Assembly: GCA_047967505.1 (NCBI GenBank) | Contig: CM106538.1 | Source of the DNA: Dipteris shenzhenensis | Lineage: Eukaryota | DNA length: 64,000 nt | Strand: one strand, 5' to 3' | Shown here: one piece after another, positions 26,872 through 63,700 of the stretch | Position numbering within the stretch: the stretch's first letter is position 1 | How the letters are laid out: each line of letters starts with the position of its first letter | Program-made: the position numbers and the translations under genes | The notes under the pieces: model-generated | Seen by the model: the letters and a program-made list of their open reading frames with translations, nothing else | What the model was told of the DNA's origin: nothing | The model's database searches: none

Positions 26872-27056
26872 CAAAGTAGAATGTCACTGGAAGTCACTGC
26901 TGGTATCTACTCCGATGTGTCAGTGCCACAGGGAGGTTTGACCATGACCCTTTTGAGAGGTCAAAGTAGAAAGTCACTGGAAGTCACTGCTGGTATCTAC
27001 TCCGATGTGTCAGTGCCACAGGGAGGTTTGACCATGACCCTTTTGAGAGGTCAAAG
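26872..27056. repeat. Near-perfect 90-bp tandem duplication
   Basis: caaagtagaa(t/a)gtcactggaagtcactgc...ttttgagaggt occurs twice with one mismatch, followed by a third caaag. Confidence 0.97.
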
Positions 27057-28160: not shown

Positions 28161-28842
28161 CGGGGAGGAGGACCTGGGAGTGTTGGTTGGCATGTGGCCA
28201 CTGATTGAGTATGCCACATGGTCCAAACCGACAGAGAAATCAGGCTGCCACATGGGCAGCACATTGGCTGTTATTTGGGCAACCAACACACAAAGAAAGT
28301 ACAGTAAAGGGGCTTCCACATGAGCAGCACATGGGCTGCCATGTGGGCAGCAAATCTAGGAGATTACCTTGCAAGGTGGATCCTCCCAGGTGGACTTAAC
28401 CTGTATGGAACTGCCACGTATCATCAGAGATCTGTACAGCACAATGTGGAGCAGGTGGGACAGCCTGGATCAAGCCGTCTGGATCACAGAACCCTGCAGA
28501 AAGTGTACGGAACAGAGGCACCCTTTGTACGAACTGTTTACAGGTGTTGTACGGGACTAGGACAGAGGTTGGAAAACGTCCAGGAAGAGGCGGAATGCCA
28601 GGAGCAGCATGGTGACTGGTTTGGCAGAGGTTTTGGCTAGGTTTGGGCCAGGAAAACATCCTGACTGGAGCTAAGAAGGGCCTGGGCCAGTGGCTGGTCA
28701 AAGCCAGCCAACCTCAGTCGGTTGAAGCAGACCAGGGTCTGCCCACTGGACTGAGGGGTAGACTGTTTGGGTTGGCTATGGGCCCTGGGGGCCTATAAAG
28801 GGAGCCACTTCAAGGCTCATTACTTATCCAGTTTTTGCAGCA

Positions 28843-30455
28843 GAAAGAAAGAAAGTCTATTAAAAGTCTTTGGAAGACCAAAAAGGGTCTTAAGACTAAA
28901 AGAAGCTGATACAATGAGCTAATGGGTGGAGCCACTAAACTGGCATCAACACTTGAGACAAATACAAAATCTACAATTCATAATCCTGCCCATAACGGCG
29001 TCAGTACACAAAAGAGAAAAAAACTCTCTAAGTAGAAGCCAGTGAGAGCATCAAGACCCCTTGGTGTGTGGGGTTGCGATGGTGGTAGAAACTCTATGAT
29101 AGGGCGCTGATGACTGTCGACATCATGTACAGCCCACTGAAGTCACCTAGCTGTAGCCCTGTGGTGAACATGTGCCACCGTCACTCCTATGGGTCATGCA
29201 TCTGGTCTAGTGAGCATGGAAGTGATGTTCCCTAGCGAGATCTGTGCCTCAGTGCGCTGCCGAGTTTGGCATGTCTCTGACTCTAGCTCAGGTCCCCGCA
29301 GCTGCCATCTCTGTGAGCCTGCTCCTCAGTACTGTCTAGCTGGAAAAACTCAGCAATCATGCTCTAAGTGGAGTTTTGGATGTCAGTCGAAATCTCCCCT
29401 GTGTGCGCTAAGCAACTGCCCCGTGTCGTACGGCCTCATGAATGAAGGTTGCCAAGCATCCCTGCTCTGGGAAGGATAGGAGACTGGGTAGAGAGTTGAA
29501 GCCACCTCTGAAATGGCGGTGGTATCGGCCCCTAATCTCGTAGTATACCGGGCACCTGAAAGCGAAATGCTCCTCTGACTCGATCTCCCAGGTGTCGCAC
29601 AAGGTACATATGCGGCCCTCTCTGGGCATTCCCTCCGATCAACCACTCTCTATACAGAGGCGGTGTGATTGTAGAATCGCTTAGGCGAGAGAGTCCACGT
29701 AGCAAAAGAGTCGATGATAAACGCCTTAGCCATCACGTCAAAGTTGGATAATCAAAAACAAAGGAGTACAAGGTACAAGTACCTAGACCTAGGACTAAGT
29801 GTCCTAGGTGTCACATAGGACTAAGTGTCCTATGTGGCCTAAAAGACACTAACACTATAAGTGTCTTTATTTATGCCTACAAGGCTCATACCATGGCCTA
29901 TAGGGCATCACTAGAACCACCAGAGGATGGCCTACAGTGATGAGACCCGGAACTACCCAATCAAAATCCTCATGGAGTGGGGGAGGTAGATCGGGTCGAT
30001 AAAGCCCTCCTCTGAAATCCCTAAGCAATGGTCTCTATAGAGGTTGAGCTTCACAGGGAGCTCCGGGGTGCCAACCAAGTCCCGCATGTGTGTAACTGTA
30101 GGAGATCCTCTCGGATGGCCTAGTTCACCTCGTGGTATATGAGCGGGATAGAGGGGGCCTCAACGTTGTACTGGAAGGGGGGTAGCCTGTCTATATTGAG
30201 CCCAAGGCTCTCAAACCATCTGCAAGTATGTGCATACCAACACCTCTGGTCCCCCTCTACTAACAGTGTCATGGAGGAGCATAAAGCCAACCAAGGAAGC
30301 CTATGTCGCACTGCGGTGCAAGATCCATACTGTCAAATGCAGGAAGAGATACGTGATGACTTGGAATGCTGCATGGAGCTGTAGTGGGGATAGCCTGAAC
30401 CCAGCCAGAAGTATCTGACGTGGAACAAAAGGCTTACTGCGGATCATCCATGAAA
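28843..30455 (-). mobile_element. 5'-truncated RTEX-like LINE interrupted by a solo LTR
   Basis: RLPWLALCSSM...WYAHTCRWFESLG...RLPPFQY; ICTLCD..EIESEEHFAFRCPVYYEIRGRY; (GAAA)n tail at 28843; GAAAG at both ends (possible TSD). Confidence 0.9.
29670..29936 (-). mobile_element. Solo LTR of Copia family B
   Basis: TG...CA, 267 bp, perfect 5-bp TSD GTGAT (29665-29669 and 29937-29941); homologous to the LTRs at 31663, 35445, 44410 and 50516. Confidence 0.95.
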
Positions 30456-31662
30456 GCTCAAGGGTCTTTACCAATTGGCTGCCCTTACAGCAGCAAGAAA
30501 GATAGGATCAAAGGGGTAGCTTGTGCCTCACCATTGGCTGCATTTCGGAGCAGCAAGGACGTCAAAGTTCGCAAATAGTGCCTTACATGTGGCTGAGTGT
30601 CTTCCGGGGTCCATATCTAGCCAACACGGTAGAGGGTGGCACACTGAATATATCTCTTTTGTGTTGTGTCCACATTGGACGGAAATATATATTTGCTGGT
30701 TCTACATCTCTATTGTGCATTGTCCATTTACTCGCTGCACACATATCTAAGTACACATTAACGAAAGAAGTTTGAGATTAAAAGACGAGTTCCTGGGTCT
30801 CTGACTCTATCAAGCGTTAGTCTTCCACAACGTACACCTTCTGTTGCCTTTTCTAACAATATGTGAAGAAAAAAACTTGATCTCACTCTCTCCTGGCCAC
30901 TATGACACATCAAGGGCTATGAATCCTGCCTTGAATGGCCATGAGGGTGTTTAAACTATCCTACCCAATCAATGAAGTAACTGAATTGCAAGTAACTGAA
31001 TTGCAAAGGTGTGAGTCCCATCTGAGGCCTTTGTACTTTTGGATCTCCTAATCTACCATGCAGTAAGTAGCAATGATCTCCCAAGCTTGAGTTCATAGGA
31101 GACTGAGATCCATGCGAAGAAATAAGTATTGTGTATAGGGTGAAGAGTTGAGGGACTCCTCTAAAGAATGAGAATGGCCCTCTCCCAAGCCACAGATCCC
31201 CAAAGTGATGTAATAGGTACCTCTCCTTATCCTGCCAAGCAAGCGTGCAATGCCCTAACAGACCTCTTCTCACCTCCAAATGCAACCTAAGTCTAAAAAG
31301 GGATGGGTGCCACATGCTGTCATATCATTTGCTCTCACTCATGTGCTTTGTTATGTGTCACATAAGCATGCACTCACCACTACGCATTCTAGGGCGGTCA
31401 ACAAGATTTGAAACTTGCATCCAGGAGTGCATGTTAATGCAATCTAATTAGACACACTGTGACAATGGCGCATGGGAGGTTTGGCCTAACCCTTCTCAAG
31501 TTCAAAGGGCATCTTCTCTCTCAGACCTCCTCGAGTAGCATGTGCTTTACATGTATGAGTCTTATTTCATCTGGAAAGCTAGTTAAAAGGCTGGTTATGC
31601 CTCTAACTTATGGAAAGGCAATCAAAGCCTTGGTGATGACAAACTGATGCCCTTGTTGTTGC

Positions 31663-34600
31663 TCTAGGATCGATAGGCAAAGAGAGAGTGCAGATTGCAA
31701 AAGGAGTCAATAGAGTCTACCGCCACATCAACTAGGATAATGAAAAAAAGGAGTACAAGCTACAAGTACCTAGACCTAGGACTAAGTATCCTAGGTGTCA
31801 CATAGGACTAAGTGTCCTATGTGGCCTAAAAGGCACTAACACTACAAGTGCCTATATTTATGCCTACAAGGCACATACCATGGCCTATAGGGCATCACCA
31901 GACCACTAGGAGATGGCCTACAAAACCCCCTCCATGGGATGGGCTGAAGTATTCTGGAAACGTCTCAGAATACCTATTATTTTCTGGTCATGGTGGCACA
32001 TGTTCATCCAAAAGGATATAGCCACCTATGAATCTACAAGGGATGTCAGATCGTGTAACAAAGGGAACCAAGTGTAAACCCTGTCGGAAGACTTCGAACT
32101 TGGGACGAGGAAGTGCCTTTGTAAACATATATGCTATGTTGTCCTCTGTGGGAAGATAGGACAACTCTATGCCTCTTGCTGACAAACGCTCCCGAACATA
32201 ATGATAGTGAACTTCAATATGCTTGGTACGTGCATGAAACACTGGGTTACGTGCAATGGCCAAAGCACTCTAGTTGTCAGTGTAGACAATACTGGAGGAT
32301 GTCTGGCGAATACCAAGATCTGTACGTACCTGTCGAAGCCAAACACACTCTACTATAGCGGTGAAAACTACCCTGTACTCAGCCTCACAGCTAGATGTGG
32401 CAATTATTGGTTGCTTCTTGTTGAGCCGAGAGATACATGAATTGCCAAGCAAAAAACAATTGCCAGTATGTGACACTCTGGTGTCGGAACATCCTGCCCA
32501 GTCACTATCCGTGTAAGCATGCATGGTAAGTGAACCCTGATCTCCATAGAAGAGGGCTAAATCCTGAGTGCCTCTGAGATATTTGAAGACTCTCTTCACT
32601 GCCTGCCAATGTTGTCAACTGGGCATGGGCATGAATCTACTGAGCTGAGATACTGCATACTATAAGTTACGTCTGGTGTGACATAAATAAATAAGGCATC
32701 CAACAGCCTGCTGATAAAGAGTGATATCACATGGTGGGCTCCCATCATGAGCTGAGAATTTAAAGCCAGGGTCCACTGGAGTAGAGATTGGCTTGCAATC
32801 CTCAAACTGAAAACGATCAAGGAGCTGTCCAATATACTTGGACTGAAACATCATGATACCCCCCTTAACATGAGCAAACTGAATGCCCAAATAATAATGG
32901 AGCTGTCCCATGTTTGACATGCCAAAAATCTGCTGCAAATAAGCCTTGAAAGCTGCAATTTGTGGAGTATCTGGGCCCGTGATCAGCATATCATCCACAT
33001 ATAAAATCAGCACTAAAAAATCAGATCCTCTCCCATGGACATAAAGAGTGGGTTCTGTGGGACTATTCTGAAAACCAAGGACAGTAAGTGTGCATGAATT
33101 TTGGCATACCATGCCCTAGGTGCCTGCTTCAAACCATAAAGGGCTTTTCTAAGCTGGCATACCTTATTTTCAGAATTAACAACCTCAAAGCCAGGAGGTT
33201 GTGTGACATATACTTCTTCCTGCAGATCCCCATGAAGAAAAGCAGTCTTGATGTCAAGTTGGTGCACTTGCCAATGATGATGGGCTGCAATGGCAATGAC
33301 ACATCTAATGGTAGTAATCCTAGATGTGGAAGCAAATGTCTCCTCAAAGTCAATGCCTTGTTGTTGGGCATACCCTTTTGCAACAAGACGGGCTTTGTAT
33401 CGATGCATGCTACCATCAGATTTCCTTTTTAATTTGTAGACCCACCGGGTACCAATGGCATGCTTGCCGGGAGGGAGATCTACTAATTCCCATGTGTCAT
33501 TTTTAGCAATGGAATGTAACTCAGCTCTCATTGCATCCATCCACTCTTTGCTATCAAAAGCATCTTTATGGCACAGAGGCTCTTCATTGCAAGCTGTAGC
33601 AAGGAGTGCAAATTCAAGAAAGTGACCGATCTTGTCCGGGCAGCAAAAGGCTGATCTTGTTTGCTATCCCTCAATGTATCAAGAAGCCATCTGGGAACTT
33701 GCCTTTGCTGTCTCTTGACAGCTCTTTCTTCAATGACTGCATCATGAATAGTGGGATCATTTTGTGCTGGAAGAGAAACCTGCAAATCAGCATGAGGTAG
33801 TGGCTGATTATTGCTTGGTGGAGAGCCTGCATGAGGCTTATTGCTGGTCAAAGTCCACTTCTGAGCATGGCAGAGGTAACCAAGATTCAAAGGCATCAAA
33901 CATGTCAACATCTGGCTTAGCTTTGCAGTCCACAAGAGGAGAAGCTGAATGTTCAGCAAAGATTACATCTCTACTGACAATAATCTTCCCAATATTTGGA
34001 TGGTATAACCCATACCCTCTGCTCTCCTGGCTGTAACCAATAAATATGCATTTGATTGCCTTGTCATCAAGCTTATGTCTCAGCTGAGATGGTTCATGAA
34101 CATATGCAAGAGACCCAAAATCTCTCATGTGTGAACGTGAAGGCTTCCTGCCTTTCCATGCTTCCATAAGGTGTAACAGTCTACAATGCCCGTGTAGGTG
34201 ATCTATTCAGCGCATAGTTGGCACATATCACTACATCAAGCCAAAATTTATTGGGCAAAGACTTGGCCTTAAGCATGCATCTGGCCATCTCCATTGTGGG
34301 CCTGTTTTTCCTTTCAGAAACAGCATTCTGCTGAGGAGTGTAAGGAGTAGTACATGAGTGAATAATGACGCGTGAACACAGAAATGCATCAAACTCCTTT
34401 GATATATACTCTCCCCCCCTATCTGTGTTGAGGGTGATAAGCTTGCATCCTGATTCATTCTCAACCACATTCAGCCATCTATGAAAGCATAAGAAAACTT
34501 CAGATTTGGCTTTTAAAGGATATATCCAGCAATATCTTGTGAAATCATCAATGAGAGTCATAAAATACTTGTACCCCCCAATGGCATTTGTCCTCATTGG

Positions 34601-35704
34601 GCCATAGACATCATTGTGCACTAGCTGCAATTTCCTTTGTGAGAGTTTTGGACAATTCTTTTGAAAAGGAAATCGATGCATCTTACCCAAAAGACAACCC
34701 TCACACACATGTTTGGAAACTATGTAAGTTTGAGGTACATCATTTGCCATGTGCTGTGCATGTAGCTTTGCAAGGGCTCTATAGACCAAATCCCAAAAGA
34801 CAGCCTCAAGGCTTGCAACTGCAAAATTAGGACTTGCTGTTCACAAATTGACCGCAAAGTGCAATTGTCCCGAAGTATAGACTTCAAGGGGTAGGCTTTC
34901 CAAACTGTTGAAATGGCTTGAGAAGATTTCAAATAGTAAAAGGAAGGTAGGGACAGCAAAAGCCCTCAAAAGCCCCAAATTTTGAGAATGTTCTGAATAT
35001 TACTTCGCACATGCAAAACCTGTACGGAGATCCCGAAACAAGTACAACTATATGGATGCAAGTACAATGTACGGATGTACAGAGCAGATCCAATGTACTA
35101 TGTACGTACACTCGTATGAAGCAAGTACGAAAGTGGTACAATGAACAGATGCAGGGTGTACGACTGTACGGAAGCAGGTACTAAGTTGTACGGTGTACAG
35201 AGCAGGTACTAAGAGCAGTATGGAGCGCAGTACGGAACGGGTACGGAGCCTTTCGTATTGTTGTATGACAGCGCAAGTACGAAGGCTCAGGTACGAAACG
35301 CTGCGGCGACTGTATAGAACGCATGCAGGATGTACGACGTAGGTACGTATGGACGTCCGTACAGTCATATGGATTGTACGGAAAGAAGGGGCAGAAAGCA
35401 ATGAAGGTCTAGGGTCACGGAGCAAGTCCTAGCTCTGATACCACTGCAGGATCGATAGGCAAAGAGAGAGTGCAGATTGCAAAAGGAGTTAATAGAGTCT
35501 GCCGTCACGTCAACTAGAATAATGAAAAAAAGGAGTACAAGGTACAAGTACCTAGACCTAGGACTAAGTGTCCTAGGTGTCACATAGAACTAAGTGTCCT
35601 ATGTGAACTAAAAGGCTCTAACACTACAAGCGCCTATATTTATGCCTACAAGGCACATACCATGGCCTATAGGGATCACTAGAGCCACGAGGAGATGGCC
35701 TACA
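31663..35704 (-). mobile_element. Ty1/Copia family B copy 1, gag and protease deleted
   Basis: LTRs 35445-35704 and 31663-31922 (260 bp each); TSD GTTGC on both sides; PBS 35432-35443; PPT at about 31926-31933; integrase, RT (LYVDDML) and RNase H (YTDSDWAG, RTKHIEVHYHYVRE) with frameshifts. Confidence 0.97.
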
Positions 35705-42871: not shown

Positions 42872-43457
42872 CCTCCTTCCATTCATCATCAAACCCTTGC
42901 GACAGCAAAGCCAGCCCAGAAGAGGGCAGTCTGCCACCTGGCCACAAAATAGGCCACTTGCATGAAGGGCTGACAGCCCTGTACAGACAAGGAGCAGAAG
43001 CATGCAGCAGTCCAAAAGGCCTTCATGAGTATGATATATGGTAGTGTGGTGAGCCATCATGCCAGCCACATAAGCAAAGCATGTTTTAGCAGTTGTATGA
43101 ACTTGGTTCAAACCCAAGTCAATAAATTCAGGATTCAAAGCAATCACGATATGTACTCTATGGAGCAGGGTGGATGCAACCCAATCATGTGTTCTCCTAT
43201 TCATGTTGATGCAATCTCTTTCAGTTATGCTACCATATGTGCTTCTTCCACTGCCACTAAAAGTAGATAAGACCTGGGCATTTGCCAGCCACATTGTCAA
43301 TAAGCCTAATTCAGTTACATGTCAGCCACCAAGCCTGTAATCGTTTGATATTACAAATAAATTTTTCTTTTAGATGAAATTACGAAACACCATAGTGATA
43401 AAAAGAGACTGTTTCCTGGAGAGATGGCCAAACAGACTCAAGGAGGAAAGGGAGTAC

Positions 43458-43682
43458 CGGTACAGCCTGAAAAGGAATCGTATTATTTTTGAACGGGTAC
43501 ATGTAATCCCCTATCATGGACTTCCCAACGAACTGATAAAAAGGCTGAATAAAGTTTAGGACTGCATCAAGGATGGCAAGGCCAAATAAAGCAACCCAGT
43601 CATGGACATGAAATGTCAGCAGCTTCCATACTGCTCCTCGTAAAGTGTTGATGACTTCAGTGCCGACAGCAGTTTCTGGCAT
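43458..43682 (-). CDS. LPP: Lipid phosphate phosphatase (PAP2/LPP), coding exon 1 (exon extends 5' to the acceptor at 43717)
   Basis: MPETAVGTEVINTLRGAVWKLLTFHVHDWVALFGLAILDAVLNFIQPFYQFVGKSMIGDYMYPFKNNTIPFQAVP matches the plant LPP N-terminus (HxHDW...PF..FVG..M...YP...NT.P..AVP). 225 nt, donor CCG|gtactc phase 0, upstream acceptor ttttgatttgcag|. Confidence 0.93.
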
Positions 43683-46374
43683 CGCTACAGGGAAGGCACT
43701 GTCTGAACCACGCGTACCTGCAAATCAAAACCAGAAAATGTCATTTATATGAAAAAATGGACATAAATTGTGTTCATATATTCCATGAATTTGTTAAGGA
43801 CAACTAGAGTAGGTCAGCCTTACGAGACCAGCCAGCGATCTCCATGGATGAGGACCTCACTCCACTACGAGTTGAGCAGAGGCGCTTCCTGTTGTAGCAG
43901 CGGGATCAGGCCCGCAAGGAGGGAAAGTGGGTGGGCAGTAGTACGAGATGGACGACTCCTTACAAGCCCCCATTGGACACCCACCTCCCCTCCCACATAG
44001 GGAGGCGGGGTCTATGAGACTCAGATATCCGAGACCCTATCCTGCGCCATCTGGAACTGTAATGGTACCTTATGGTTAGAACCAGGGAACTTTTTGGAAT
44101 CCTATACAGGTCACGACATAGTCTTTTATACAAAGACACATCAGATTCCAGAGCACCCACTACCAGTAGTCAACGGGTATACATGGGAGTCTACCTACAG
44201 AGATGAGACGAGGGATACAGGAGGGATTCGAGGGTCAAGAGGAGATGCAGTTCTTTACAGATCACACTTTTGGGAGCCATCTCAGTGGAGCAAAGAGATG
44301 CACATTCTAGGCTTTTCTTTGGATCCACATTCGACACATGGACAGCTGGATCTGTTTATTGCAGTTTGCTACTTCCCCCCTGAGACCTCTCACTTTGCCA
44401 AAGATATTTTGTAGGGCATCTCCTGGTGGTTCTAGTGATGCCCTATAGGCCATGGTATGTGCCTTGTAGGCATAAATATAGGCACTTGTAGTGTTAGTGC
44501 CTTTTAGGCCACATAGGACACTTAGTCCTATGTGACACCTAGGACACTTAGTCCTAGGTCTAGGTACAAGTACCTTGTACTCTCTATTTTCATTATCTTG
44601 GTTGACGTGATGGCAGACTCTATCAACTCTTTTGCGATCTGCACTCTCTCCTTGCCAATCAATCCTACAGTGGTATCAGAGCCCGAATCTGCTTCCTGTC
44701 CCTGTACAGTCCGTACCAACTGCCCGTACATCTGTTGTACTTGCAATCCGTACACTCGCCGTACATTGCTGTACATGCAATGTCGTACAACGTACATGTG
44801 TCGTACGTCCGTACCTGCATACAGTACTGTGTTATACTGTGCTCCATTGCGCTGCACTTTCTGTACGGAAGTACGCTACGTTTCGTACATGTCGCCGCAC
44901 AATGTACATGTTCCGTACAAGTATCTGCAAAGTATATGTCACGTACGTTGTACCCATGACGTACCTTGTACCTGATCCATACTCCATACTTGTGTCGTAC
45001 ATGTTTCGTACTTTCTTCACCGTACAACCCGTACCTGCATCCCCGTACATCGTACATTGGATACCATACTGTCGTGAAACCGTACACCGTATAATCCAAC
45101 TGTACTTTGGATATGTTCCGTCCATCCGTACAATGTACATGCTTCCGTATAGCTGTACTTGTTTCGAGATTTCCGAACAGGTTTGGCATGTGTGAAATTT
45201 GCAGGACACTCTCAAAATTTGGGGCTTTTGAGGGCTTTTGCTATCATTATCTCCCTTCTACTGTTTGAAATTTTCTCAAGCCATTTCAACAGTCTGGAAA
45301 GCCTATCTATACTTTGGGACAAGTGCATTTTTGCAGTCAATTTATGGACAGCAAGTCCTAATTTTTGGAAGTTGCAAAACTTGAGGCTATTTTTCGGGAT
45401 TTGGTCTACAATTTCTATTTTGATTGCACTACATTGAGTCACTTTTGCAGGACATTGAGTCAGATTCTCATACATTGGGTCACATTTGCAAAGATCTCAG
45501 CAAAATTTGGGGCTTTTCTGCATTTGACCTCTTTTTGGCCTATTTGCCCTCATTAAATTTGCGGCTTTAGCCAGATTTGCTGTTTTTGCAGTGAACATTG
45601 CCTGCCACAGTCACATTTGGGTCAGATCTGCATTTGCCCTTTGATTTGGGTCAGAAATTTGCAGATATTTGCTCTCATTTTTTGGACAGCCAGCTTTTGT
45701 AGTGATAGCATTGAGGCTTTTTTGTTTTCAGGTCTCTTTCAAGGTATCAGATTTGCTATGGCTGGAAACAATCAGGATCTATTTGGTGTTCTTCGTGAAG
45801 ATGATAAGTTGGATGGCACCAACTATCCGATGTGGTCTTATCTCACGAAACATATTCTTGTTGCAAAGCATTTGTGGAATATTGTTTCTGGGGTTGATCT
45901 GAGGCCAGCCAATGCTACAGTGGTTGCCTCTACTGCTGGTCCCTCTGCAGGGGGTACTCCTCCTGATGCCTCATCCTCTAGCACTCCTGTTGCTACTCTT
46001 CCAACTCAGGAACAGTCAAGATGGGATGCAAGAGATGCAAATGCACATTCATGTATTGCTTTATAATGCAAGAGAATCATTATTCCACACATCCGGTCTT
46101 GCAGGACAGCAAAGGATGCTTGGGATAAATTGGGTTCTCTCTATCAGATTCGCAATGAGGAACGTGTTGCATATTTGAGAAGGGAATTACAGGAAGTCAG
46201 TATGAATGAAGGTGACTCTATGGATGCATACCTGACAAAGGTCAAGGACCTCATGGAACAACCTGCCAACATTGATGAGGTGGTGCCACATTCACAGCTT
46301 GTCAGTACCACATTGAATGGACTGCCAAATACATATCAAGGGTTTGCTACAACCCTTCGATTAGTGGCCATGGG

Positions 46375-47229
46375 TATACCTAGATGAATCCAGGAACATT
46401 CCCAAACTCATCCTCTAAAAACACAACATAGTGCAGTTTCAATCTCATGATAGTCACTCACAAGGTTGAAAACCATAAACTCCATCATGCATAGTAAGGA
46501 ATAGCTACTATGACATCCCCACTGACGTCATCAGCACCCAACAGTGGGTGTAGACCATAGTATAAAAATATGCTCTCACACATACAAATCCACACACCCA
46601 CACATACTTGAGCATCCATTTATACAAAGTCTTCGTACTGAGTTTCTATCGGCACTCCGGAGGTGAAGGGTACACTCAGCCATGATGAACGCTAGCACTA
46701 AAGGAGAAGGCTAATCAAAAGGTAGTCCAAAATCTCTTCATTCAAGCTACAACTGCTTGTGAAGTCAAAACATTTTCATTTTAGTCTCTCCCCAACGAGC
46801 ATCTAAATCTAAATCTAGTTGATAGGGCAACGCACCATTTACGATAGAAAGAATTATCACAATACCAACAGGCCGCAACTTGGATGAAAACTTCACAAGG
46901 TGAAATTTGCATGTCCGCTAATACGGCAGAAGCATATACCTAGATGAATCCAGAAACATTCCCAAACTCATCCTCTAAAAACACAACATAGTGCAGTTTC
47001 AATCTCATGATAGTCACTCACAAGGTTGAAAACCATAAACTCCATCATGCATAGTAGGGACTAGCTACTATGACATCCCCACTGACGTCATCAACGCCCA
47101 ACAGTGGGTGTAGACCATAGTATAAAAATATGCTCTCACACATACAAATCCACACACCCACACATACTTGAGCATCCATTTATACAAAGTCTTCGTACTG
47201 AGTTTCTGTCGGCACTCCGGAGGTAAAGG
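46375..47229. mobile_element. Non-coding insertion with 295-bp terminal direct repeats (1.5 copies of a 560-bp unit) in Copia gag
   Basis: A 46375-46669, B 46670-46934, A 46935-47229; GGCCATGGGTA duplicated at 46366-46376 and 47228-47238; removing it restores gag LRLVAMGNLDHYSFDQL. Confidence 0.9.
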
Positions 47230-48128
47230 CCATGGGTAATCTAGACCACTATTCTTTTGATCAGCTAGTTACTTTGCTTTTGCAAAAAGAGCAAAGCAGA
47301 GCTAATAGACAAGCCATTATTCCTGATCATGCATTTGCTTACAACAGACAGGAAGAGGCAAGGCTTCCAAGCCTATGGGCAAGCCAAAATCTGCGCATAG
47401 CAGCTGCAATTCCTCCCATGCATCCAAAAATACAGCAGATAAGTCAAAGAAGAAAAGATGCAACTATTGTCGCAAGCCAAGACATGACATTTTAGAATGC
47501 AGGAAGTGCATTGCTTCAGAGAAAAAGAAAGCAGGATTAACAGTTAATGCCTCTCATGCTATTGAATCCAATGAGCCAGAAGATGCTTCACATGCACATG
47601 CTCTTTAGGATGATTGGGCATGGGCTGTCCATTGCTCATTTGATCATTTGGAGATGTGCAGCTCACATCCATTTCAAGCCATCCTGTCACTCTGACAAAT
47701 GTTCTTTTTGTGCCTGGAATTAATGTCAACTTGATTTCAATTTCAGCCATTGCCACTTCAAGTTTCAAAGTTATTTTTGATGGCTACAGATGCCTAGTTT
47801 ATGATCTTCATGATGACAATGCCATAGTTCTCACTGGCACTTTGCAAAAAGGGCCTTATCACCTTGATCATCACTCAGCTGGACTTTCTATTGAAGCACT
47901 GGCTATTTCAGATTCACACCTTGCTGAAACTCATCTTTGGCATGACAGAATGGACCATCTCAATTATAGAGCTCTTGCAAAGCTACATTCACAGCAGATG
48001 GCAAATGATGTACCTCAAACTCACACAGTTTCCAAACATTTCTCTCTTCACGCGGCATTATTCACTCATGTACTACTCCTTACACTCCTCAGCAGAACCC
48101 TGTTTCTGAAAGGAAAAACAGGTCCACA

Positions 48129-50450
48129 ATGGAGATGGCCAGATGCATGCTTAAGGCCAAGTCTTTGCCCAATAAATTTTGGCTTGATGCAGTGATGTGT
48201 GCCAACTATGTGCTGAAAAGATCACCTACACGGGCATTGAAGACTATTACACCTTATGAAGCATGGAAAGGCAGGAAGCCTTCACTTTCACACATGAGAG
48301 TTTTTGGGTCTCTTGCATATGTTCATGTACCATCTCAGTTGACACGTAAGCTTGATGACAAGGCAATCAAATGCATATTTATTGGTTATAGCCAGGAGAG
48401 GAGAGGGTATCGGTTATATCAACCAAATAGTGGGACGATTATTGTCAGTAGAGATGTAATCTTTGCTGAACATTCAGCTTCTCCTCTTGTGGACTGCAAA
48501 GCTAAGCCAGATTTTGACATGTTGCATGCCTTTGAATCTTGGTTACCTCTGCCATCCTCAGAAGAGGACTTTGACCAGCAACATGAGCCTCTTGCAGGCC
48601 CTCCACCAAGCAATAATCAGCCACTACCTCATGCTGATTTGCAGGTTTCTCTTCTGGCACAAAATGATCCCACTATTCATGATGCAGTCATTGAAGAAAG
48701 AGCTGTCAATAGACAGCAAAGGCAAGTTCCCAGATGGCTTCTTGATACATTGAGGGACAGCAAACAAGATCAGCCTTTTGCTGCCCGGACAAGATCAGGG
48801 AATAGACAGCATGGTCACTTTCTTGAGTTTGCACTCCTTGCTACAGCTTGCAATGAAGAGCCTCTGTGCCATAAAGATGCTTTTGACAGCAAAGAGTGGA
48901 TGGATGCAATGAGGGCTGAGTTACATTCCATTGCTAAAAATGACACATGGGAATTAGTAGATCTCCCTCCCGGCAAGCATGCCATTGGAACCCGCTGGGT
49001 CTACAAATTAAAAAGGAAATCTGATGGCAGCATAGATCGATACAAAGCCCGTCTTGTTGCAAAAGGGTATGCCCAACAACAAGGCATTGACTTTGAGGAG
49101 ACATTTGCTCCCACATCCAGGATTACTACCATTAGATGTGTCATAGCCATTGCCGCCCATCATCATTGGCAAGTGCACCAACTTGACATCAAGACTGCTT
49201 TTCTTCGTGGGGATCTGCAAGAAGTATATGTCACACAACCTCCTGGCTTTGAGGTTGTTAATTCTGAAAATAAGGTATGCCGGCTTATAAAAGCCCTTTA
49301 TGGTTTGAAGCACGCACCCAAGGCATGGTATGCCAAAATTCATGCACACTTACTATCCCTTGGTTTTCAGAATAGCCCCACAAAACCCACTCTTTATGTC
49401 CGCAGGAGTGGACCTGATTTTTTAGTGCTGATTTTATATGTGGATGATATGCTCATCACGGGCCCAGATACTCAACAAATTGCAACTTTCAAGGCTGATT
49501 TGCAGCAGATTTTTGACATGTCACACATGGGACAGCTCCATTTTTATTTGGGCATGCAGTTTGCTCATGTTGAGGGGGGTATCATGATGTCTCAGTCCAA
49601 GTATATTGGACAGCTCCTTGATCGTTTTCAGTTTGAGGATTGCAAGCCAATCTTTACACCAATGGACCCTCCCTTCAAATTCTCAGCTCATGATGGGAGC
49701 CCACCATGTGATATCACTCTTTATCAGCAGGCTGTTGGATGCCTTATTTATTTATGTCACACCAAACATGACTTACAATATGCAGCATCTCAGCTCAGCA
49801 CATTCATGCACATGCCCAATTCACAGCATTGGCAGGCAGTGAAGAGAGTCTTCAGATATCTCAAAGGCACTCAGGATTTAGCCCTCTTCTATGGTGATCA
49901 CGGTTCACTTACCATGCATGCTTACACGAATAGTGACTGGGCAGGATGTTCCGACACCAGAGTGTCACATACTGGCAATTGTTTTTTGCTTGGCAATTCA
50001 TGTATCTCTTGGCTCAGCAAGAAGCAACCAACAGTTGCCACATCTAGCTGTGAGGCTGAGTACAGGGCAGCTTTCACCGCTACAATAGAGTGTATTTGGC
50101 TTCGACGGTTACTTACAGATCTTGGTATTTGCCAGACATCCTCCACTATTGTCTACACTGACAGCCAGAGTGCTTTGGCCATTGCGCGTAACCTAGTGTT
50201 TCATGCGCGTACCAAGCATATTGAAGTTCACTATCATTATGTTCGGGAGCGGTTGTCAGCAGGAGACATAGAGTTGTCCTATGTTCCCACAGAGGACAAC
50301 ATAGCAGATATGCTTACAAAGGCACTTCCTCGTCCCAAGTTCAAAGTCTTCCGACAGGCTTTACACTTGGTTCCCTTTGTTACATGCTCTGACATCCCTT
50401 GTACATTCATAGGTGGCTATATCCTTTTGGATGAACATGTGCCGCCATGA
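48129..50450 (+). CDS. Copia pol remnant ORF (integrase C-terminal half, RT, RNase H), 773 aa uninterrupted
   Basis: RYKARLVAKGYAQQQGIDFEETFAP, QLDIKTAFL, LYVDDML, SSCEAEY, RTKHIEVHYHYVRE; RNase H DSD changed to NSD. Confidence 0.9.
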   Translation: MEMARCMLKAKSLPNKFWLDAVMCANYVLKRSPTRALKTITPYEAWKGRKPSLSHMRVFGSLAYVHVPSQLTRKLDDKAIKCIFIGYSQERRGYRLYQPNSGTIIVSRDVIFAEHSASPLVDCKAKPDFDMLHAFESWLPLPSSEEDFDQQHEPLAGPPPSNNQPLPHADLQVSLLAQNDPTIHDAVIEERAVNRQQRQVPRWLLDTLRDSKQDQPFAARTRSGNRQHGHFLEFALLATACNEEPLCHKDAFDSKEWMDAMRAELHSIAKNDTWELVDLPPGKHAIGTRWVYKLKRKSDGSIDRYKARLVAKGYAQQQGIDFEETFAPTSRITTIRCVIAIAAHHHWQVHQLDIKTAFLRGDLQEVYVTQPPGFEVVNSENKVCRLIKALYGLKHAPKAWYAKIHAHLLSLGFQNSPTKPTLYVRRSGPDFLVLILYVDDMLITGPDTQQIATFKADLQQIFDMSHMGQLHFYLGMQFAHVEGGIMMSQSKYIGQLLDRFQFEDCKPIFTPMDPPFKFSAHDGSPPCDITLYQQAVGCLIYLCHTKHDLQYAASQLSTFMHMPNSQHWQAVKRVFRYLKGTQDLALFYGDHGSLTMHAYTNSDWAGCSDTRVSHTGNCFLLGNSCISWLSKKQPTVATSSCEAEYRAAFTATIECIWLRRLLTDLGICQTSSTIVYTDSQSALAIARNLVFHARTKHIEVHYHYVRERLSAGDIELSYVPTEDNIADMLTKALPRPKFKVFRQALHLVPFVTCSDIPCTFIGGYILLDEHVPP

Positions 50451-53400
50451 CCAGAAAATACCAGGTATTTTGAGACGTTTCTAGAGTACTTCAGCCCATC
50501 CCATGGAGAGGGGTTTGTAGGCCATCTCCTCGTGGGTCTAGTGATGCCCTATAGGCCATGGTATGTGCCTTGTAGGCATAAATATAGGCACTTGTAGTGT
50601 TAGTGCCTTTTAGGCCACATAGGATACTTAGTCCTATGTGACACCTAGGACACTTAGTCCAAGTACCTTGTACTCTCTATTTTCATTATCTTAGTTGACG
50701 TGACGGCAGACTCTATCGACTCTTTTGCAATCTGCACTCTCTCTTTTTGCCTATCGATCCTACATATTCGAGATGAGGATGAGACATCTCCATTTGCTAC
50801 TCTTTATCAGTCCATTGTTGACTTCTCTAGCCGCAAAGAAGTCCTCCTAGTTAGGGACTTCAACGCGAGGACAAGTGCTCATCAGGCACCACTCCTCGAC
50901 TTTAGGGATGATTCCACTCTACTGCGGAAAGAAACTAGACTTTGTCCACTGGAACGAGGAGGAGCTACTGAACATTCTAATCAGTAACAACTCTAAGGTC
51001 TTTTGGCGGAGATTTCTAGAGGGACGGTCCCCCTCACCACTCACTGAGACTCAAGCGTGGTTTGATTATGCACGCACTCTATGATATCCCAAATCAGCCA
51101 ATCCCTAACCTCTCACATATGCCACGCCCCACATCTTGCACCCTCTTCACTAGGGGGGAGTAAAGGATGCCGTAATGAAACTTCATAATGGCCGAGCGAA
51201 GAATCACGAGGGACTATGCACTGAGTTCATTGCATATGAGATTAACCTCCTAGCCCCGATCTTAGTAAAGCTATTTAATGAAGTTGTTTGTTTGGGGTTT
51301 CCATGCACCTGGACAATTAACACTATCTCACCCATTCACAAGGCAGGGGATCCCATGAGCCTAGAGAACTACACGACCATTATGATTGGACATGTCATGT
51401 ACAAGATTTATGCATCAGTACTTGATTCCTAGGTCAGTAGATTTGCGGAGTGTCGAGGACTTAGAGCAACAGGACCGGCCAGATTCCGGCGTGATTATGG
51501 GACCATGGACCACATTCTCATGCTCAGATGTATCATCGAGGAGGCAAGGACACGGAAGCAGAGGATTTACTGTTGCTTTGTGGATTTTCGCAAGGGATTT
51601 GACACGGTTCTAAGAGCCCGCCTCATACGGCGCCTACAGGATTTGGGTTACGACCAAGAGATCATTTGGGCTGTCATGGCACTTTATGAGAGAGTTTCAG
51701 ATAGAATCAGGGCAAGATCTAGGTGGACAGACGAGATCATGAGCACTATGGGGGTCAAACAAGGGTGTCCATTATCACCTACCTTGTTTGGCCTCTACAT
51801 TGACGAACTTGAGACAGTGATGCAGACATACAGGGGGAAGGTTGCTCTCTTGCGGGCACGCTGATCCGGATATTGCTTTATGCAGATGACGTGGCTCTCT
51901 TGTCTTCCTCAACAAAGGGGCTCCAGATACACCTTGACGCACTATAATCCTTTTGTGAATCTCATGATTTGAAGGTCAACCTGGGTAAAACCAAGGTTGT
52001 GATCTTCAATACATCTCGAGCCGTCATGCGCCAAGAGCAATTCGCATTTGATGGGTCACCTATTGAGGTAGTTTCATCATACACTTATCTTGGGGTCGTC
52101 TTTTCCGGACCCATCTTCACTATGAGATCCGCGATGCAAGCACGCTTGAGCAGAGGATATGCTTCATTGGCTAGACTAGAGAGACAGTGCTTCTGCTCTC
52201 ACTTTCAAGATCCACGGACCAAAGGGTTGCTTTTAGACTCCTTGGTTCGTCCAGCGGGGATGTATGGCAGTCCATGCTGGGGGCCAGAGTTGTCGGATAC
52301 AAAGTGGGCCAAGGTGGAGCGGCTACCAGTTCTCATGTTATCACGGATGATCTGAGGTAAGCCATCTGTTCCTCACCACATCATTCAAGCGGAGTTTGGG
52401 TCACCCCCATTACAGCTAGATGTTGCATTTCAGGTCATCACGTATCTGTACCGAGTCAGGGAGTATGGGGATTACAACTCTGGGCGTAGCAGGCTACCAT
52501 GGCTAGCACTGTCCTCTTCTATGGCACTTGCAGTAGCACGACACCAGAGGCGTTGGTATGCATGCACAGAGAGATCCACATGGACAGACTACCTCCATTT
52601 CAGTATAGCATGGATGCTCCGTTTTCTCCCCTCCTATCGCACGAGGTCAACCAGGTTATCCGTGAGGATCTATTACAGCTACTCACATTCCGGACCTAGT
52701 TGGGCCCGAGTGATCTTCTAGTGAAGCTGGGCTTCTACAGAGATCACTTCTCATATATCACAGTGGAGGGTTTCATTGATCCACCAAGGTACACTCAGAT
52801 TTACTTCCCCTCTCATTGAGGATCTCTCTTGGGCAGTTCCGGGTCTTTTCACATAGACTTCGTATCGAGAGCGGCAGAGCAGAGCGACTACGCAGGGAGA
52901 GGCGCATATGCACTTTGTGTGACATGCAGAAGGTTGAGACAAAGGAACACTTCATCTTCACTTGTCCTGTTTACTATGAGATCCAAGGACATTTCGACTA
53001 CCTCTTCAGAGATAGCTATGGGGTTTTGGCCCGATTCATCTCCTACTCAAACCAGCGATGTTTGGCAGGTTTCGTTCATGAGGCACTCAGACTCCGCGAG
53101 AGGATACTCCGAGCATGGCGACTGGAGCAGACTTCTTCTTTGGCTGATCCCTCTCAAAGTTCTATCACGGAGTTTTTCCATCCAGATCACATGGTCACCC
53201 ACGGGACGAGGCCTCGACATGATCGTGACCCGGAGCCTGTGACCCGATAGCTCAGACAGAGGGTTGATACACAGATCACACTTGGGGACATCCCCTCCAT
53301 GTTTAGAGTCGGGTCTCGCCCGACGGGGGTCACAGTAGCCCTGGTTAGATGCAGAGCTATAACCAGGAGACATGCCAGGGCTGCACCTCTGAGTAGCCGA

Positions 53401-53658
53401 CACCACTCTATCGCCAATTTCATGCCCCCATTGCCTCATCCACCTTGATGTCTTGATGGTGATGATGATGATGATGATGAGATAGTCGACTACCGACATG
53501 ACATGACTATGTTGTACTTAGGATTTAGTACTGACATTTTGCATTTTTTGCATTTGCATTGGTGTGGATGCTTGTTTAGTAGCTCCACCACCATAGTTCA
53601 TTTGTACCAGGCTTTTCACAATCTCATAGACCCATCGATCTTCCAAAAACTTTAATAA

Positions 53659-53680
53659 TCTCTCTCTCTCTCTCTCTCTC
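53659..53680. repeat. (TC)n microsatellite forming the LINE tail
   Basis: Directly follows ...actttaataa. Confidence 0.95.
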
Positions 53681-54125
53681 CAACCCGCCGTACAGTCCCG
53701 TAGCCCGTCATACATTCTCCATACAATCTCGTACAGTGTCACGTAGCTTCTCCGTACAGTCCCGCAACCTCCCTGTACAGCCCGTCGTTCAGCTCTTACA
53801 GTCCATTGTACCCTTTCTGTACATCCCATACCAGTCTGTCGTACCAGCCCCGTACTTTCTCCGTACATCTTTCGTACTCCCCGTACTTTCTCATAGCAAG
53901 CTCCTACGGTCTCTAGCCCCGAGTTGGGCTAAACCCCCAGCCCAACTTTTGGGAGTTAGGTTCAGCTGGGGAGTTCTAAAGAAATAGCAATTATGGAATG
54001 GCCTACCCTCTCCTCCAAATCCCCCTCAACTCCATCAACCTCAACTATCAGGACTCGGTACTCTACAGTTGCAGCAATGACACCCTCTCCGTATGCACGC
54101 AATGACCAGCAAGAAGGGTCCAAAC

Positions 54126-55647
54126 TGTTAGAAAATGACCCAACAGAGGTATGCACAGCAGAAGACCGATAGAATTGCCCAAGAACTCACACAGTGTGGT
54201 GTGGGTTGTGGAATCGCAAACTTCTTAACTTATTGTACATAGAATAGATGTGCAAACTCATTAATAGACAGTGAACCAACCAGATAGAGAAACCACCAAA
54301 ATAATATATTTCCATCCAAAGCTATGGACACAATACAAAAGAGATAGATCCAGAGTCCCACCAATGGTGTGGTCCTCTGATCTTACCACAAGGTCCTTCT
54401 CCTATCTACCGGCTATCTCTAGACTCGAGCTTGCATGCCCCACCTCGAGCGTAAGTAGACTTTCCGCATCCAAAGATTTTCTCCACCTTGCTGTCTGGAA
54501 ACCAGACTAGGTGGGCTGCCAATCAAGCTCAGTCTGCAGCTCCTTCGGGGTCACCTTCACCTCCTGTTGACAGGCCCAAGGTTAGCCTTCTTGCTGCTCC
54601 TGTCTGCTGTCAGAGGGCTGCTCCAGATGATGATTAATGAGGGCCCTCCTTTTATAGGCCCCCTAGGGGCTGTCATAAAACCGACCAGCCAGCCTCATCC
54701 TGGCCGACCAGTCTGCTTGCTGGCGAACTTGGTTGGCTGGTCCAACCAGCCCTATATAAGGGCCTTTTCCAGGCCCTTTTGGGCTGCTGGCTTTGTCCCT
54801 GTCTGCGCCTATTGCAGGCCCATGTGCTTATGCTCCAGGTCTCCCATGCAGGTGCCTATTGGCCCTGCTCATGTGTCACCTGTATGCCTCTGCCAGCCCC
54901 ATGCGCTGCTCTTTGGAGGCGTCTTTTGCTGCGCTACATGCGGCCTCTGTCCCACCAACTGTGCGCAGTGCTTCTTGGGCTGAATACCTGAAGGCAAACA
55001 AGTTGTGTGGACCAAGGCAACACTGAAAGCACCCAAAAACACCACCCAGAACTAGGCTAAGGGCCAGACTCTTACTGGGAATGTGCACTGCCTAGCCTTC
55101 GAAAAATGAGCTCTGCAACCGGGCCTAGGAGAAAACCCCCGAAAAGCAGCCACTAGGGACACGCAACAAATCGCAGCAGATACTCCAAGCAATTCGTACA
55201 TATGAGCTCCAGAGAGGCGAAAAGAGGGAAAGCTGTGTTGCTTCACCTTCAACACCCAGAAACTCCAGAAACGAATGAACAATGGGGGGCTGACCAGTCG
55301 CAAAATGTGCCAACCCACAGCCAAGAATAAGGTCCGCCAACAAAAGGGGGGTTACGAGATGCCAGCAGCCCAATGTAAGCTCCTGGTTGTTCGAAACCAG
55401 CAAGAAGCTTGCATGAGCAGCGAATAAAGGACCTCGAATGCCCCTGCCTTCTAAACAATGATCAACTGGCAATCGTGCCAATGGGAGCTGCCAAAATGCC
55501 ACTCCAAAACCCGAGCTGCAAAGCAACCTGGAGCGACATTCCAGAGAGAATCACTAGTTTCAGGGACCATGTACTCAGGAACAAATCCTATGTGGAATAC
55601 AACATCAAATGGAGGGGCCTTTAGGAAGATGAATCCTCTTTGCAACA
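54126..55647 (-). mobile_element. LTR-like sequence (about 1.5 kb)
   Basis: TGTT...AACA termini; TATA-like cctataaaag on the minus strand near 54650; 54126-54283 is the reverse-complement homologue of about 57770-57927. No TSD found. Confidence 0.5.
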
Positions 55648-55719
55648 TTCATTAGTGAAGCAGTATCCATATCTACTCAAGTAATGCAAGATTTTTTTTT
55701 CCAAGAAAATTACTTCATT

Positions 55720-60760: not shown

Positions 60761-63700
60761 TGTAAATTCAATAAGTGGGTTAGGGGCACTTTTCTCTCAT
60801 TTAGACGTTTTTTCTCCTAACCACAGTTAGTTCACTAACTACGGTTAGTGAAGGATAAGGTTTGTCACTTAGACAAAACCTTATGCCCCTTTGTATTCTT
60901 CTTACTCTATTCTATTGCACATTCGACGTTCCTCTCACTCTCTCAGGCTTCCTGCTCTCCCTCTCTCATTTTCTATCATTTGGTATCAGAGCAGCTTTCC
61001 TTCCTGGACCTACTCCATGCTCCTTGCTCCTTGCTCACAGCTCCCACGCCATTCGTCCGTACAACTTCATCGTCAAGCTAGCAGCAAATCGTCCGTGCAA
61101 CATACGGACTGTCAGTCCGTACTCTTACGCCACACGTGCAAACTACAGTAGCACCAACCATACATCTCTCTGCTCATCATCCGTACAAGTGTGCCAATTT
61201 TGCATGCACACAATCTAACGGTTGCATTAGCCATTGACCTACAGATTTGTACCTGTCAGTTTGCATCAGTCGTACTACTCCGTACAACTGCGCAGTACTG
61301 CTCCGCACACCTGCGATGTATTCTCTACACTTGTAGTCAAAAATTCCGTAAAGCTCCTACACTGCATTCCGTACAGTAGGTCTGCAGCGCCTGCTGTCAG
61401 CCTCGTACATCTATACAAGTGTACGGATTTTGTCCGTATACTTCTATCTGTACAGTCGTACGACTGTTTCTGTCCAGCGCTTGTCAGTCCGTACAGATCA
61501 GTGCATTGTAGGCATTCTTGCAGGTTTTTTCTTTGGCCGGCATCAAGTAGCCATTGTTTGGCTTGTATTCTGGGGGCACAATTTGGGCATTTTATTCTCT
61601 TGCAGACTTTGAAGTTGGTTTGCAGATGTTCAAAAAATTTGGGGCTTTTGCAATTGGATTGCAATTTTGCAATGGAAGAGCAATTTGGGAGCTTTGCAAA
61701 CTTTTTGGACTCAGTTTGAGTCACATTTGAGCATTTGGGAATTTTTTGCAGCTATTTTACTCTGGTGCATTTTGAGCCATTGTTTGGTTGAGGATTCAAG
61801 CAGCTGCATTTTGAGATTGTGGGTGTGCTCATTTGGACACATTGGCAGTAGAATTTAGTTCTTTTGCATATAAATTGCAAATTGGGGCTTTCAGTCAATT
61901 TGCCCCTTTTTGAGTTGCAATTTCTTGCAAAAATGTGAGGCTTTTTACTTTACACTGCAATTTCTTGCATTTTTGGGGCTTCCAGGCAATTCGCCCTCTT
62001 TTGGATGCAATTTCCCTGAAGAAATTAGGGCTTTTAGCATCCTGATGCAATTTGGCAGTGTACAAGCATTTTGGGCCTGTTGTCGACAATTTTGAGAGCA
62101 TTTGCAGGATAATTGAAGTGCATTCTGAGCCTTTGATAGGCTGTGACAGTATTTGTCACTGTGGACAGATTTTTCTTTGCAGATTTTACTTGTGCATTTT
62201 ACATCCCAAGAAGGGATTTTACTTGGTCAGTTTGCTGTATTTTTTGAGATTATCTGGTGAAAATGGCTCAGAACAACCCCAAGGAGGTGTAGTTCTCACA
62301 CGGGAGGAAGTTGGATGGCACTAGCTACTCCTTGTGGAGTTTAATGGTTCGCAATATCTTGGTTGGCAGACATCTTTGGGATTATGTCAGTGGAGATGAA
62401 GCAAGACCAGATACAGCGACTACACTTGTCACTCCTACAACTGGAGGCAGGGGTAGAGGTGCAAATGCAACACAAGTAGTTGGAGCAGCCGCTCCAAGAG
62501 CTCCCATAACAGAGCAGAAAAGATGGGACTCTAGAGATGCACAAGCTCTTTCAGTAATTTCTCTTTCTGTTAAGAGGTTCATTATACCTCATATTCGGTC
62601 ATGCAAGACATCTATGGCAGCTTGGGAGATACTAGAGAGTATGTTTGCAGCAAGAAATGATGCCAGGGTTTCCTTTCTGAAGCGAGAACATTCACATACG
62701 CATATGGAGGAGGGAGATTACATGAATTCTCACCTCACAAAGCTTCAAGACTTGAGGGAACAATTGCTGAATATTGATGGAGTCATTCTAGATGCAGAGA
62801 TAGTCACCACCACTCTAAAAACTCTTCCTGAGTCCTATCTCAGTTTCCACACCTCGTTGAATTTGTCATTGAGGGGAGGCAGCAATCCTCTCTCTTTTCA
62901 CGAGTTGGTAGGACTTCTGTTGCAGGAGGATCAAGACTCGCAAAAATATGGCAACCGGGCTGGCGAGCATGCTATGCTCTCCAAGTTCAAGCCCAAGGGT
63001 AAAGGGCAGCAAAAGCCACAAGCCAATCAGCCCACACATCAGCATAAAGCTGATTCTAGACAGCCTTCTTATAAGGCAAAGGGTGATACAAAAAAACAGA
63101 AAAAGAAGGGCATCTATCATTATTGCAAGAAGCTAGGTCATTATATTGGAGAGTGTAAGAAGCGCATAGCCAAAGAGAAGAAAAGGGATTCCGGTATGGC
63201 TATGTCAGATGCATCAATTCCACATTCTCATGATGGGGTAGATGTTGCAGCCAACTTTGTGGAATAGCACTATGCCTTTCTATCTTGCACTTCAGATTTT
63301 TCAGTGGGTAGTTCAGATGCTACAACAACTAATGATGACCCATATGCTTTCTTGACTTGCAGTTATGATCCTTTAAAGGATGCATGCTCTCTTAGTGTCG
63401 ATGAGACACTTCATACTTGGTATTTTGACAGTGGTGCTTCAAAGAACATCACTTCCAAGAAGAGTCTGTTTGTATCTCTGCATCCTCCACCCACCAAAAA
63501 GAAGGTGACTTGTGCCAATAATTCTTCTTATTCAATGTGCGGAGTGAGAGACATTATTCTCCCATCCACTGATGGCACAGATTTCAGAATTTCACATGTT
63601 CTCTATGTGCCAGGGATAAAGAAGAATTTGCTTTCAGTGTCCTCACTTAATAGAGAAGGATTTCAGGTTGCTTTTTATGATGACAAGTGTGCAGTCAGAG

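Follow-up and report, generated by a model that had tools for sequence, protein, structure and literature searches.

Contig CM106538.1 of the Dipteris shenzhenensis assembly GCA_047967505.1 holds, within the stretch of 64,000 nucleotides analysed here (the window), a gene for a lipid phosphate phosphatase (LPP; PAP2), and in one intron of this gene a long interspersed nuclear element (LINE) whose endonuclease frame is split by a Copia retrotransposon, called copy A below. It is the 5′ untranslated leader of copy A, crowded with the short word GTAC, that concerns us here. Copy A is full-length but broken. Its place in Ty1/Copia is given by paired TG...CA long terminal repeats (LTRs), a primer-binding site (PBS) and the order Pol_BBD, gag_pre-integrs, SH3_retrovirus and RVT_2, while its gag-pol region is interrupted by stop codons and one insertion, and no match to the rve core was obtained in its open frames. 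The PBS presumably belongs to the iMet-tRNA type, and a TATA-like word seen by eye near 44,473 in the 5′ LTR may be a promoter element. From pol to the 3′ LTR there is no extra open reading frame (ORF), nor an env-like one. The 5-mers flanking the element agree at four of five bases. The insertion in gag, at about 46,375-47,229, is a small nested element of about 850 bp with 295-bp direct repeats that are 98% identical.

Array A, the cluster of GTAC words in this leader, begins 21 bp behind the PBS, with its first core at 44,704, so that the original prediction, an earlier reading of the letters alone, was right to place it directly there. It had also counted about 32 GTAC in 460 bp by hand, and the exact number is indeed 32 within 44,700-45,160 (461 bp), the last starting at 45,155. 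Outside the four arrays to be described, the window contains 2.5 GTAC per kb, which gives an expectation of 1.2 per 461 bp (Poisson p about 2e-34). As predicted, the word comes mostly as CGTAC (20) or CCGTAC (11), against four GTACG and one GTACGG; the two hexamers together make 12, where the window background gives 0.06. When the region itself was shuffled with its dinucleotides preserved (n=1000), GTAC reached a mean of 9.4 and a maximum of 19, and CCGTAC a mean of 1.0 and a maximum of 5. Near-misses of the forms CATAC and CGTAT had been regarded as deaminated copies. For the former this is plausible, as 13 of the 19 ATAC near-misses have a preceding C, which fits CpG deamination of CGTAC, although the four CATAC of array A lie inside the shuffle range (mean 1.9, maximum 6); CGTAT was rejected as a deamination product, with two in array A against 2.4 by shuffle. 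A coding origin was also rejected, since open frames across arrays A and D gave no Pfam match up to an E value of 1.

Table 1. Features of the copy A locus and other GTAC clusters in the window (K2P, Kimura two-parameter distance; o/e, observed/expected)
Feature	Position	Strand	Description
Array A	44704..45158	+	32 GTAC cores with varied spacers; consensus (C/T)CGTAC(A); CpG o/e 1.40
5′ LTR, copy A	44410..44669	+	260 bp, TG...CA
PBS, copy A	44671..44682	+	TGGTATCAGAGC
Leader second half, copy A	45160..45757	+	TGCA-rich, CpG-poor; GGGGCTTT at 45,221 and 45,509; 17-mer identical to Copia C
gag-pol, copy A	45758..50450	+	DUF4219, Retrotran_gag_2, Pol_BBD, gag_pre-integrs, SH3_retrovirus, RVT_2
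3′ LTR, copy A	50516..50764	+	95.5% identity to 5′ LTR, K2P 0.046
Array B	35022..35385	-	Leader of sister copy B; 23 GTAC in 35,040-35,385 (346 bp)
Array C	61058..61495	+	Leader of second Copia family, PBS 60,981; 13 GTAC (in 451 bp), 6 CCGTAC
Array D	53689..53887	+	11 GTAC (in 216 bp), about 11-bp phasing, directly after LINE tail
Mini-cluster E	28505..28553	-	Three CGTAC at exact 22-bp spacing, LTR-like element
LINE hosting copy A	43816..53680	+	Endonuclease and RT (reverse transcriptase) frames, (TC)n tail; 5′ end approximate
LPP internal coding exon	43456..43717	-	AG acceptor
Further LPP exons	24,865-23,653 and 12,652-12,291	-	

Array A is not alone. Three further arrays (B, C and D) were examined together with it, all four from this one window, as well as a mini-cluster, E. 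Copy B (31,662-35,704, minus strand) is an internally deleted sister of copy A in the next LPP intron, and carries its array at the same place in the leader. The two copies are 94.6% identical in pol, 88% in the zone behind the array and 84% in the last 95 bp of the array, whereas the array core falls to 46% identity over 265 columns, with 184 gap columns. The motif thus persists, while the sequence around it turns over. Copia C is of another family, with a gag only 47% identical to that of copy A; nevertheless, the leaders of A and C, 1.1-1.3 kb long, have a common layout and share an identical 17-mer that contains GGGGCTTT. Array D has neither PBS nor gag, and no match to it was found elsewhere in the window or in the 23 related loci described below. 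Downstream of it (53,680-55,700) come a short open frame, a start resembling an LTR at 54,126 and, 1.5 kb away, a weak chromodomain-like frame at 55,379-55,621 (E 0.19). Three more elements of the window have a PBS, and in none of them does the part examined behind it contain any GTAC.

The second half of the leader deserves separate mention. The original prediction had noted a TTGCA-rich zone following the array, and such a zone is real, with TGCA at 20 per kb against 11-15 per kb in gag and pol. It was rejected as a part of the array, since the leader of the Copia at 5.6 kb, free of the array as had been stated (no GTAC in 5,648-6,400), holds 15 TTGCA without a single CCGTAC. This leader is about 2 kb long and TTGCA-rich, and the LTR region of the element has 58-67-bp tandem repeats (5,168-5,403). 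The word GGGGCTTT occurs in the window only in the second halves of the three array-bearing Copia leaders (plus strand, 45,221, 45,509, 61,641 and 61,884; minus strand, 34,969), lies inside the 17-mer shared without mismatch by families A and C, and is absent from all 12 related leaders with a clear PBS. It is a candidate for a second site or an RNA signal.

How is the array distributed among related elements? The related set consists of 23 Copia loci from metagenome contigs, several of them near-duplicates, and 12 have a clear PBS. None of the 23 has more than five GTAC in any 300 bp, and none of the 12 PBS-bearing leaders, which are 320-392 bp long, has an array; they contain 0-2 GTAC and no CCGTAC. 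Viral contigs gave no relatives by RT or gag. In a first gag tree of 32 rows, whose careful search was unfinished, A groups with the array-less loci L005, L008 and L010 (support 88), and C with the array-less L001 and two proteins whose leaders are not known (support 99). A single clade of A and C was rejected by the approximately unbiased (AU) test on a quick tree, in which short or near-identical rows had been dropped to leave 13 of the 32 (p-AU 1.05e-5). Since the array is present in the non-sister elements A and C and absent from related leaders, the module follows the host and not the gag lineage. Exchange of leaders, convergence and loss elsewhere can each give such a distribution, and the gag tree does not separate them.

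What, then, keeps GTAC in these leaders? In the four arrays together, which hold 79 GTAC, 50 of the 56 CGTA continue with C. Leave-one-out retention, without background correction for the core, is 74-92% for the core bases, 63% for C at position -1 and 52% for C at -2, 51% each for A at +4 and T at +5, and 29-43% for the remaining flank positions. Before the core the commonest dinucleotide is CC (28/79), followed by TC (17), and any C stands at -1 in 50 of 79. The arrays are also islands of CpG, with o/e ratios of 1.09-1.40, while the rest of these elements has 0.08-0.28. Among the spacings of all four arrays, 11 bp, about one helical turn, is found most often, with 14 of 75 cases against a null mean of 4.8 (p 0.017 that any spacing would be so frequent).

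One account would be a neutral, self-propagating degenerate minisatellite, which arises from slippage of reverse transcriptase at GTAC microhomologies and has no reader. There are indeed local duplications in A (35 bp, 2.2 copies), B (28 bp, 2 copies) and C (23 bp, 1.9 copies), D resembles a degenerate 11-bp repeat, and the low identity of the array core between copies A and B relative to pol can be counted on the same side. The decay of a simple repeat, which the original prediction had named as the outcome that would speak against it, was simulated from homogeneous 7-13-bp units decayed to about 30 GTAC per 461 bp (4 units, 7 rates, 200 runs each); the modal fraction in the flanks was then 0.79-0.95, with 0.65 in the lowest single run, while 0.44 is observed. 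A second simulation, of duplication and deletion anchored on GTAC, either lost the array, with 300 of 300 runs ending at no more than 20 GTAC/kb, or left long repeats: in the 238 of 720 states that stood at 50-95 GTAC/kb, repeated 12-mers took up 28% of positions or more, and a perfect repeat reached 25 nt or longer. In the real arrays these values are 0.9% and 12 nt, both simulated neutral regimes thus being far from the data. The marks of a minisatellite, namely one consensus unit, even conservation and head-to-tail copies, are not seen: the flanks vary, no identical spacers of 5 nt or longer occur in any of the four arrays, and Tandem Repeats Finder (TRF) reports just 80 bp of array A. The same hexamer and polarity, moreover, recur in non-sister elements. 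Slippage therefore probably seeds units, yet something retains the cores, and a wholly neutral origin seems improbable to us. An RNA-level signal, in which self-complementary GUAC words drive dimerisation or packaging of genomic RNA, or hairpin small RNAs, is a further account, and the place directly behind the PBS would suit a packaging signal. Raw folding z-scores of -3.4 (A), -4.4 (B) and -5.2 (C) are in line with it, and Sirevirus palindromes are described, in passages of PMC4728375, as forming hairpins and siRNA hotspots. Once the GTAC cores are held fixed, however, nothing is left to explain in the folding of A, which 23 of 45 shuffles equal (z 0.08); array B folds only weakly better than its controls (-0.87), and array D less well than its own (+2.2). 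Packaging, offered in the original prediction as an alternative, thus gains no support for array A from these folding controls. Array C does retain extra structure (z -3.1, 1/45 shuffles) and has, unlike array A, perfect local hairpins and a 16-nt palindrome formed from inverted motif units (61,100-61,125 and 61,450-61,470). The cores are not extended as palindromes (14 of 79 as six-mers, against 17.9 by permutation), the polarity of CGTAC over GTACG (50 to 8 pooled, p 2e-8) leaves the 5′ C unpaired, D and E are not Copia leaders, and Rfam gave no match in 43,000-64,000. The chance that RNA is the active form is, in our judgement, small. Folding control, polarity, CpG island and 11-bp spacing point together to a double-stranded DNA site, and, as the neutral models miss the combination of intact core and scrambled spacers while the folding of A is a by-product of its palindromic cores, the core looks selected at the DNA level.

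Which protein could read such a site? We lean, with only modest confidence, towards reading array A as a putative docking array for SPL (SBP-box) factors in a Copia leader, which is in its central part what the original prediction had proposed. DNA affinity purification followed by sequencing (DAP-seq) of Arabidopsis SPL proteins distinguishes, in the passages concerned, a GTAC class and a GTACGG class (class B), with a weaker GG beside the core in SPL9/15 (bioRxiv 10.1101/2024.09.13.612952), and the tomato protein SPL-CNR is described in parts of PMC13458263 as a repressor that binds unmethylated GTACGG and is blocked by CG methylation. The arrays resemble class-B sites, which read GTACGG on the opposite strand, in the firm GTAC core, in the weaker neighbouring GG/CC, and in having a CpG at the position where methylation stops binding; they differ in their number, the known sites being single or few and located in gene promoters. 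The presence of the motif in several element types, the non-sister Copia families A and C and the non-Copia D and E, speaks more for a host protein as reader than for one made by the element. Among the ORFs of copy A there is no extra one for a binder of its own, though a factor from an element outside the window may be the binder.

A selected DNA array with a different reader is the account that competes most directly with SPL docking. Such a reader might be another host factor, e.g., one with an insulator or anti-methylation role that maintains the leader as a CpG island, or a factor of another element, by analogy with VANC-like anti-silencing proteins. All the evidence for constraint is blind to the identity of the reader. 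A CpG-rich island in a CpG-poor element is also what Sirevirus clusters show, with a reader not known according to passages of PMC2829016, and the gypsy leader array of Drosophila is bound by an insulator protein and not by an activator (passages of PMC7168160 and PMC3383448). On the other hand, the graded profile, with a firm GTAC and a weaker one-sided CC, is as reported for SPL9/15 in the part consulted of bioRxiv 10.1101/2024.09.13.612952. A reader of the CGT(A/G) type would have no need of the final C that is so well kept after CGTA. NAC proteins, whose binding core is CGT(A/G), are an example of this type. We regard another reader as rather unlikely.

Several observations weigh against SPL docking and should be put together. 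The reading is drawn from the sequence, and a short word centred on GTAC can be read by other proteins, some match to a plant motif being easy to find. The evidence is limited to four arrays in a single 64-kb window; the relatives without arrays include near-duplicates and come from hosts that are not known; and the grouping of A with C was put to the AU test only after the first tree had been seen. The neutral tests cover two model families only. TGTAC, where the core is kept, outnumbers CATAC, where it is lost, by 23 to 13, in the expected direction without significance (p 0.13). At the alignable 3′ end of arrays A and B, identity in the cores (22/25) is only slightly higher than that in the spacers (47/60). 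CpGs outside the motif are also fairly well retained (o/e 0.71-1.01), which could mean low methylation and not selection of sites. Finally, array A by itself is not helically phased (p about 0.45), so that its description as non-periodic in the original prediction holds for A alone, and the pooled 11-bp signal comes mainly from D and B, with a global p of 0.063 for GTAC pairs.

If SPL docking is nevertheless accepted for the moment, how would the array work? Placed in the 5′ untranslated leader, some hundreds of bases behind the LTR promoter, it would serve as a cis-regulatory module and offer many double-stranded sites to a host SBP-box (SPL) factor, mostly of the class preferring CCGTAC/GTACGG. 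New units may be seeded by short slippage duplications during reverse transcription, and the cores retained through selection on replicating copies, while the second Copia lineage may have gained the module by leader exchange or by convergence. SPL occupancy would then tune transcription of the element, by activation or by repression, only where the CpG of the site is unmethylated. In the dead copy A the array is probably methylated and decaying.

The position of copy A in the LPP gene bears on a further idea, namely that LPP now uses the array, by co-option, as an enhancer responsive to SPL or as an alternative promoter. Contigs from sequencing runs of related organisms were available here, from four of eight listed runs (X1, X2, X3 and X6; best share of words 0.12). 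Those of X1, X2 and X6 cover exactly 43,456-43,718, that is, the LPP exon; in X1 and X6 one loose end is the next LPP exon, as judged from its translation by eye, and the other consists of 101 letters of an upstream exon, which has no match in the window at up to three mismatches. Together with the AG acceptor, these upstream letters make the exon internal, and the statement that the array lies about 1 kb from LPP exon 1 has to be corrected: array A lies 983 bp inside an intron that exceeds 20 kb, and copy A is antisense to LPP. The gene as a whole is longer than 50 kb (12,291-43,717 on the minus strand and past 64,000), its introns being packed with nested Copia, LINE and LTR pieces. A solo LTR of the copy A/B family lies inside a LINE (29,687-29,936), and a 90-bp tandem duplication, 98% identical, in an LPP intron (26,872-27,056). 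Co-option could appeal to the short distance between the array and an LPP exon with an in-frame ATG, and to the three further arrays in or near the gene. The array is, however, intronic and nested in a LINE, its conservation is no better than expected for a decaying copy, and the contigs of related organisms show ordinary splicing of LPP, though the insertion may be absent there. An array-bearing element so placed gives no support to the donation of an enhancer to LPP, which the original prediction had suggested, and we consider co-option very improbable. It is to be noted that 44,714-45,117 is left uncovered by the contigs of all four runs at 80% likeness, with the LTR, the second half of the leader and gag covered; such a hole proves nothing. 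One X3 contig flanks the array region, with about 555 letters between its matching pieces against about 624 in the window.

Arrays of this kind have known counterparts. In the passages concerned of PMC7168160 and PMC3383448, the 5′ untranslated region (5′UTR) of Drosophila gypsy is described with 12 Su(Hw) sites in 340-350 bp, along with an array of host-factor sites that makes up the leader enhancer of copia, and in those of PMC2443393 host proteins are described on the leader of Drosophila copia. Like array A, these are short, degenerate sites that an LTR retrotransposon carries over 340-460 bp of its 5′ untranslated leader; in Drosophila, host DNA-binding proteins bind there with a strength that depends on the number of sites (PMC7168160 and PMC3383448, same passages), a binding that is only inferred here. 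The differences are the animal hosts and readers, the motif, and 12 sites against 32. Plant counterparts are the repeated-motif (RM) boxes of Sireviruses, for which parts of PMC2829016 and PMC4728375 give 8-32 copies per element, in CpG-island clusters that evolve fast. These too are short motifs repeated 8-32 times in plant Copia elements, with a CpG island, fast turnover and a proposed regulatory role. From the same parts, RM boxes are symmetric CGG-CCG palindromes whose identity usually exceeds 85%; they lie before env and, within the LTR, upstream of the TATA box. Array A, by contrast, has asymmetric, polarised sites with unique spacers behind the PBS of an element with a 260-bp LTR and no env. 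Of the RM characters it thus shows the CpG island, but neither the palindromic unit, as the polarity count of 50 to 8 indicates, nor the location in the LTR or before env.

Inga is a Sirevirus of the Triticeae. Within its RM box (AGCGGTASTACCGCT, 32 copies, as given in a passage of PMC2829016) stands GTASTAC, which the consulted part of bioRxiv 10.1101/2024.09.13.612952 reports as the DAP-seq motif of wheat TaSPL7/13. This may be a second link between Copia elements and SPL. Heat-shock elements in ONSEN and the dehydration-responsive element (DRE) in Rider are likewise host-factor sites in plant transposons, gained recurrently in separate Copia families, although the sites are few, lie in LTRs and serve stress factors (passages of PMC8725346). 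The same passages report enrichment of the SBP-box motif in Pogo elements of Arabidopsis, which is a statistical enrichment in a DNA transposon and not a dense array in a leader. Passages of the wheat DAP-seq paper PMC9663577 contain no statement on SPL and transposons, and its supplements may bear on the point. We found no report of a GTAC or SPL array in a retrotransposon leader in a literature search that left most subscription papers and supplements outside.

An array of a selected-looking motif recurs across transposon families of one plant genome, and works like the gypsy/copia and Sirevirus arrays. A bolder picture can be drawn, in which a dense module of SPL sites, helically phased in part, arose independently in several unrelated transposon lineages of this plant group, or was traded among them, these being two non-sister Copia families and no fewer than two further elements. 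The module would be wired to the miR156/SPL age clock or to an SPL7-type copper response and gated by CpG to demethylated cells of the reproductive lineage, with hundreds to thousands of copies reshaping the SPL binding landscape of the host; as a whole this picture is possible, though we hold it doubtful. How do silenced plant retrotransposons time their activity to the cells that reach the next generation? The question is an open one, with stress factors at work in most of the cases known. For a dense leader array of SPL type, one fragment of 460 bp would allow a direct test. If SPL proteins do not bind, a strongly selected array of a hexamer with another reader would still need explaining. 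If they do, the elements would take their timing from a developmental or nutrient clock of their host, and long introns would gain many SPL sites with the copies inserted there.

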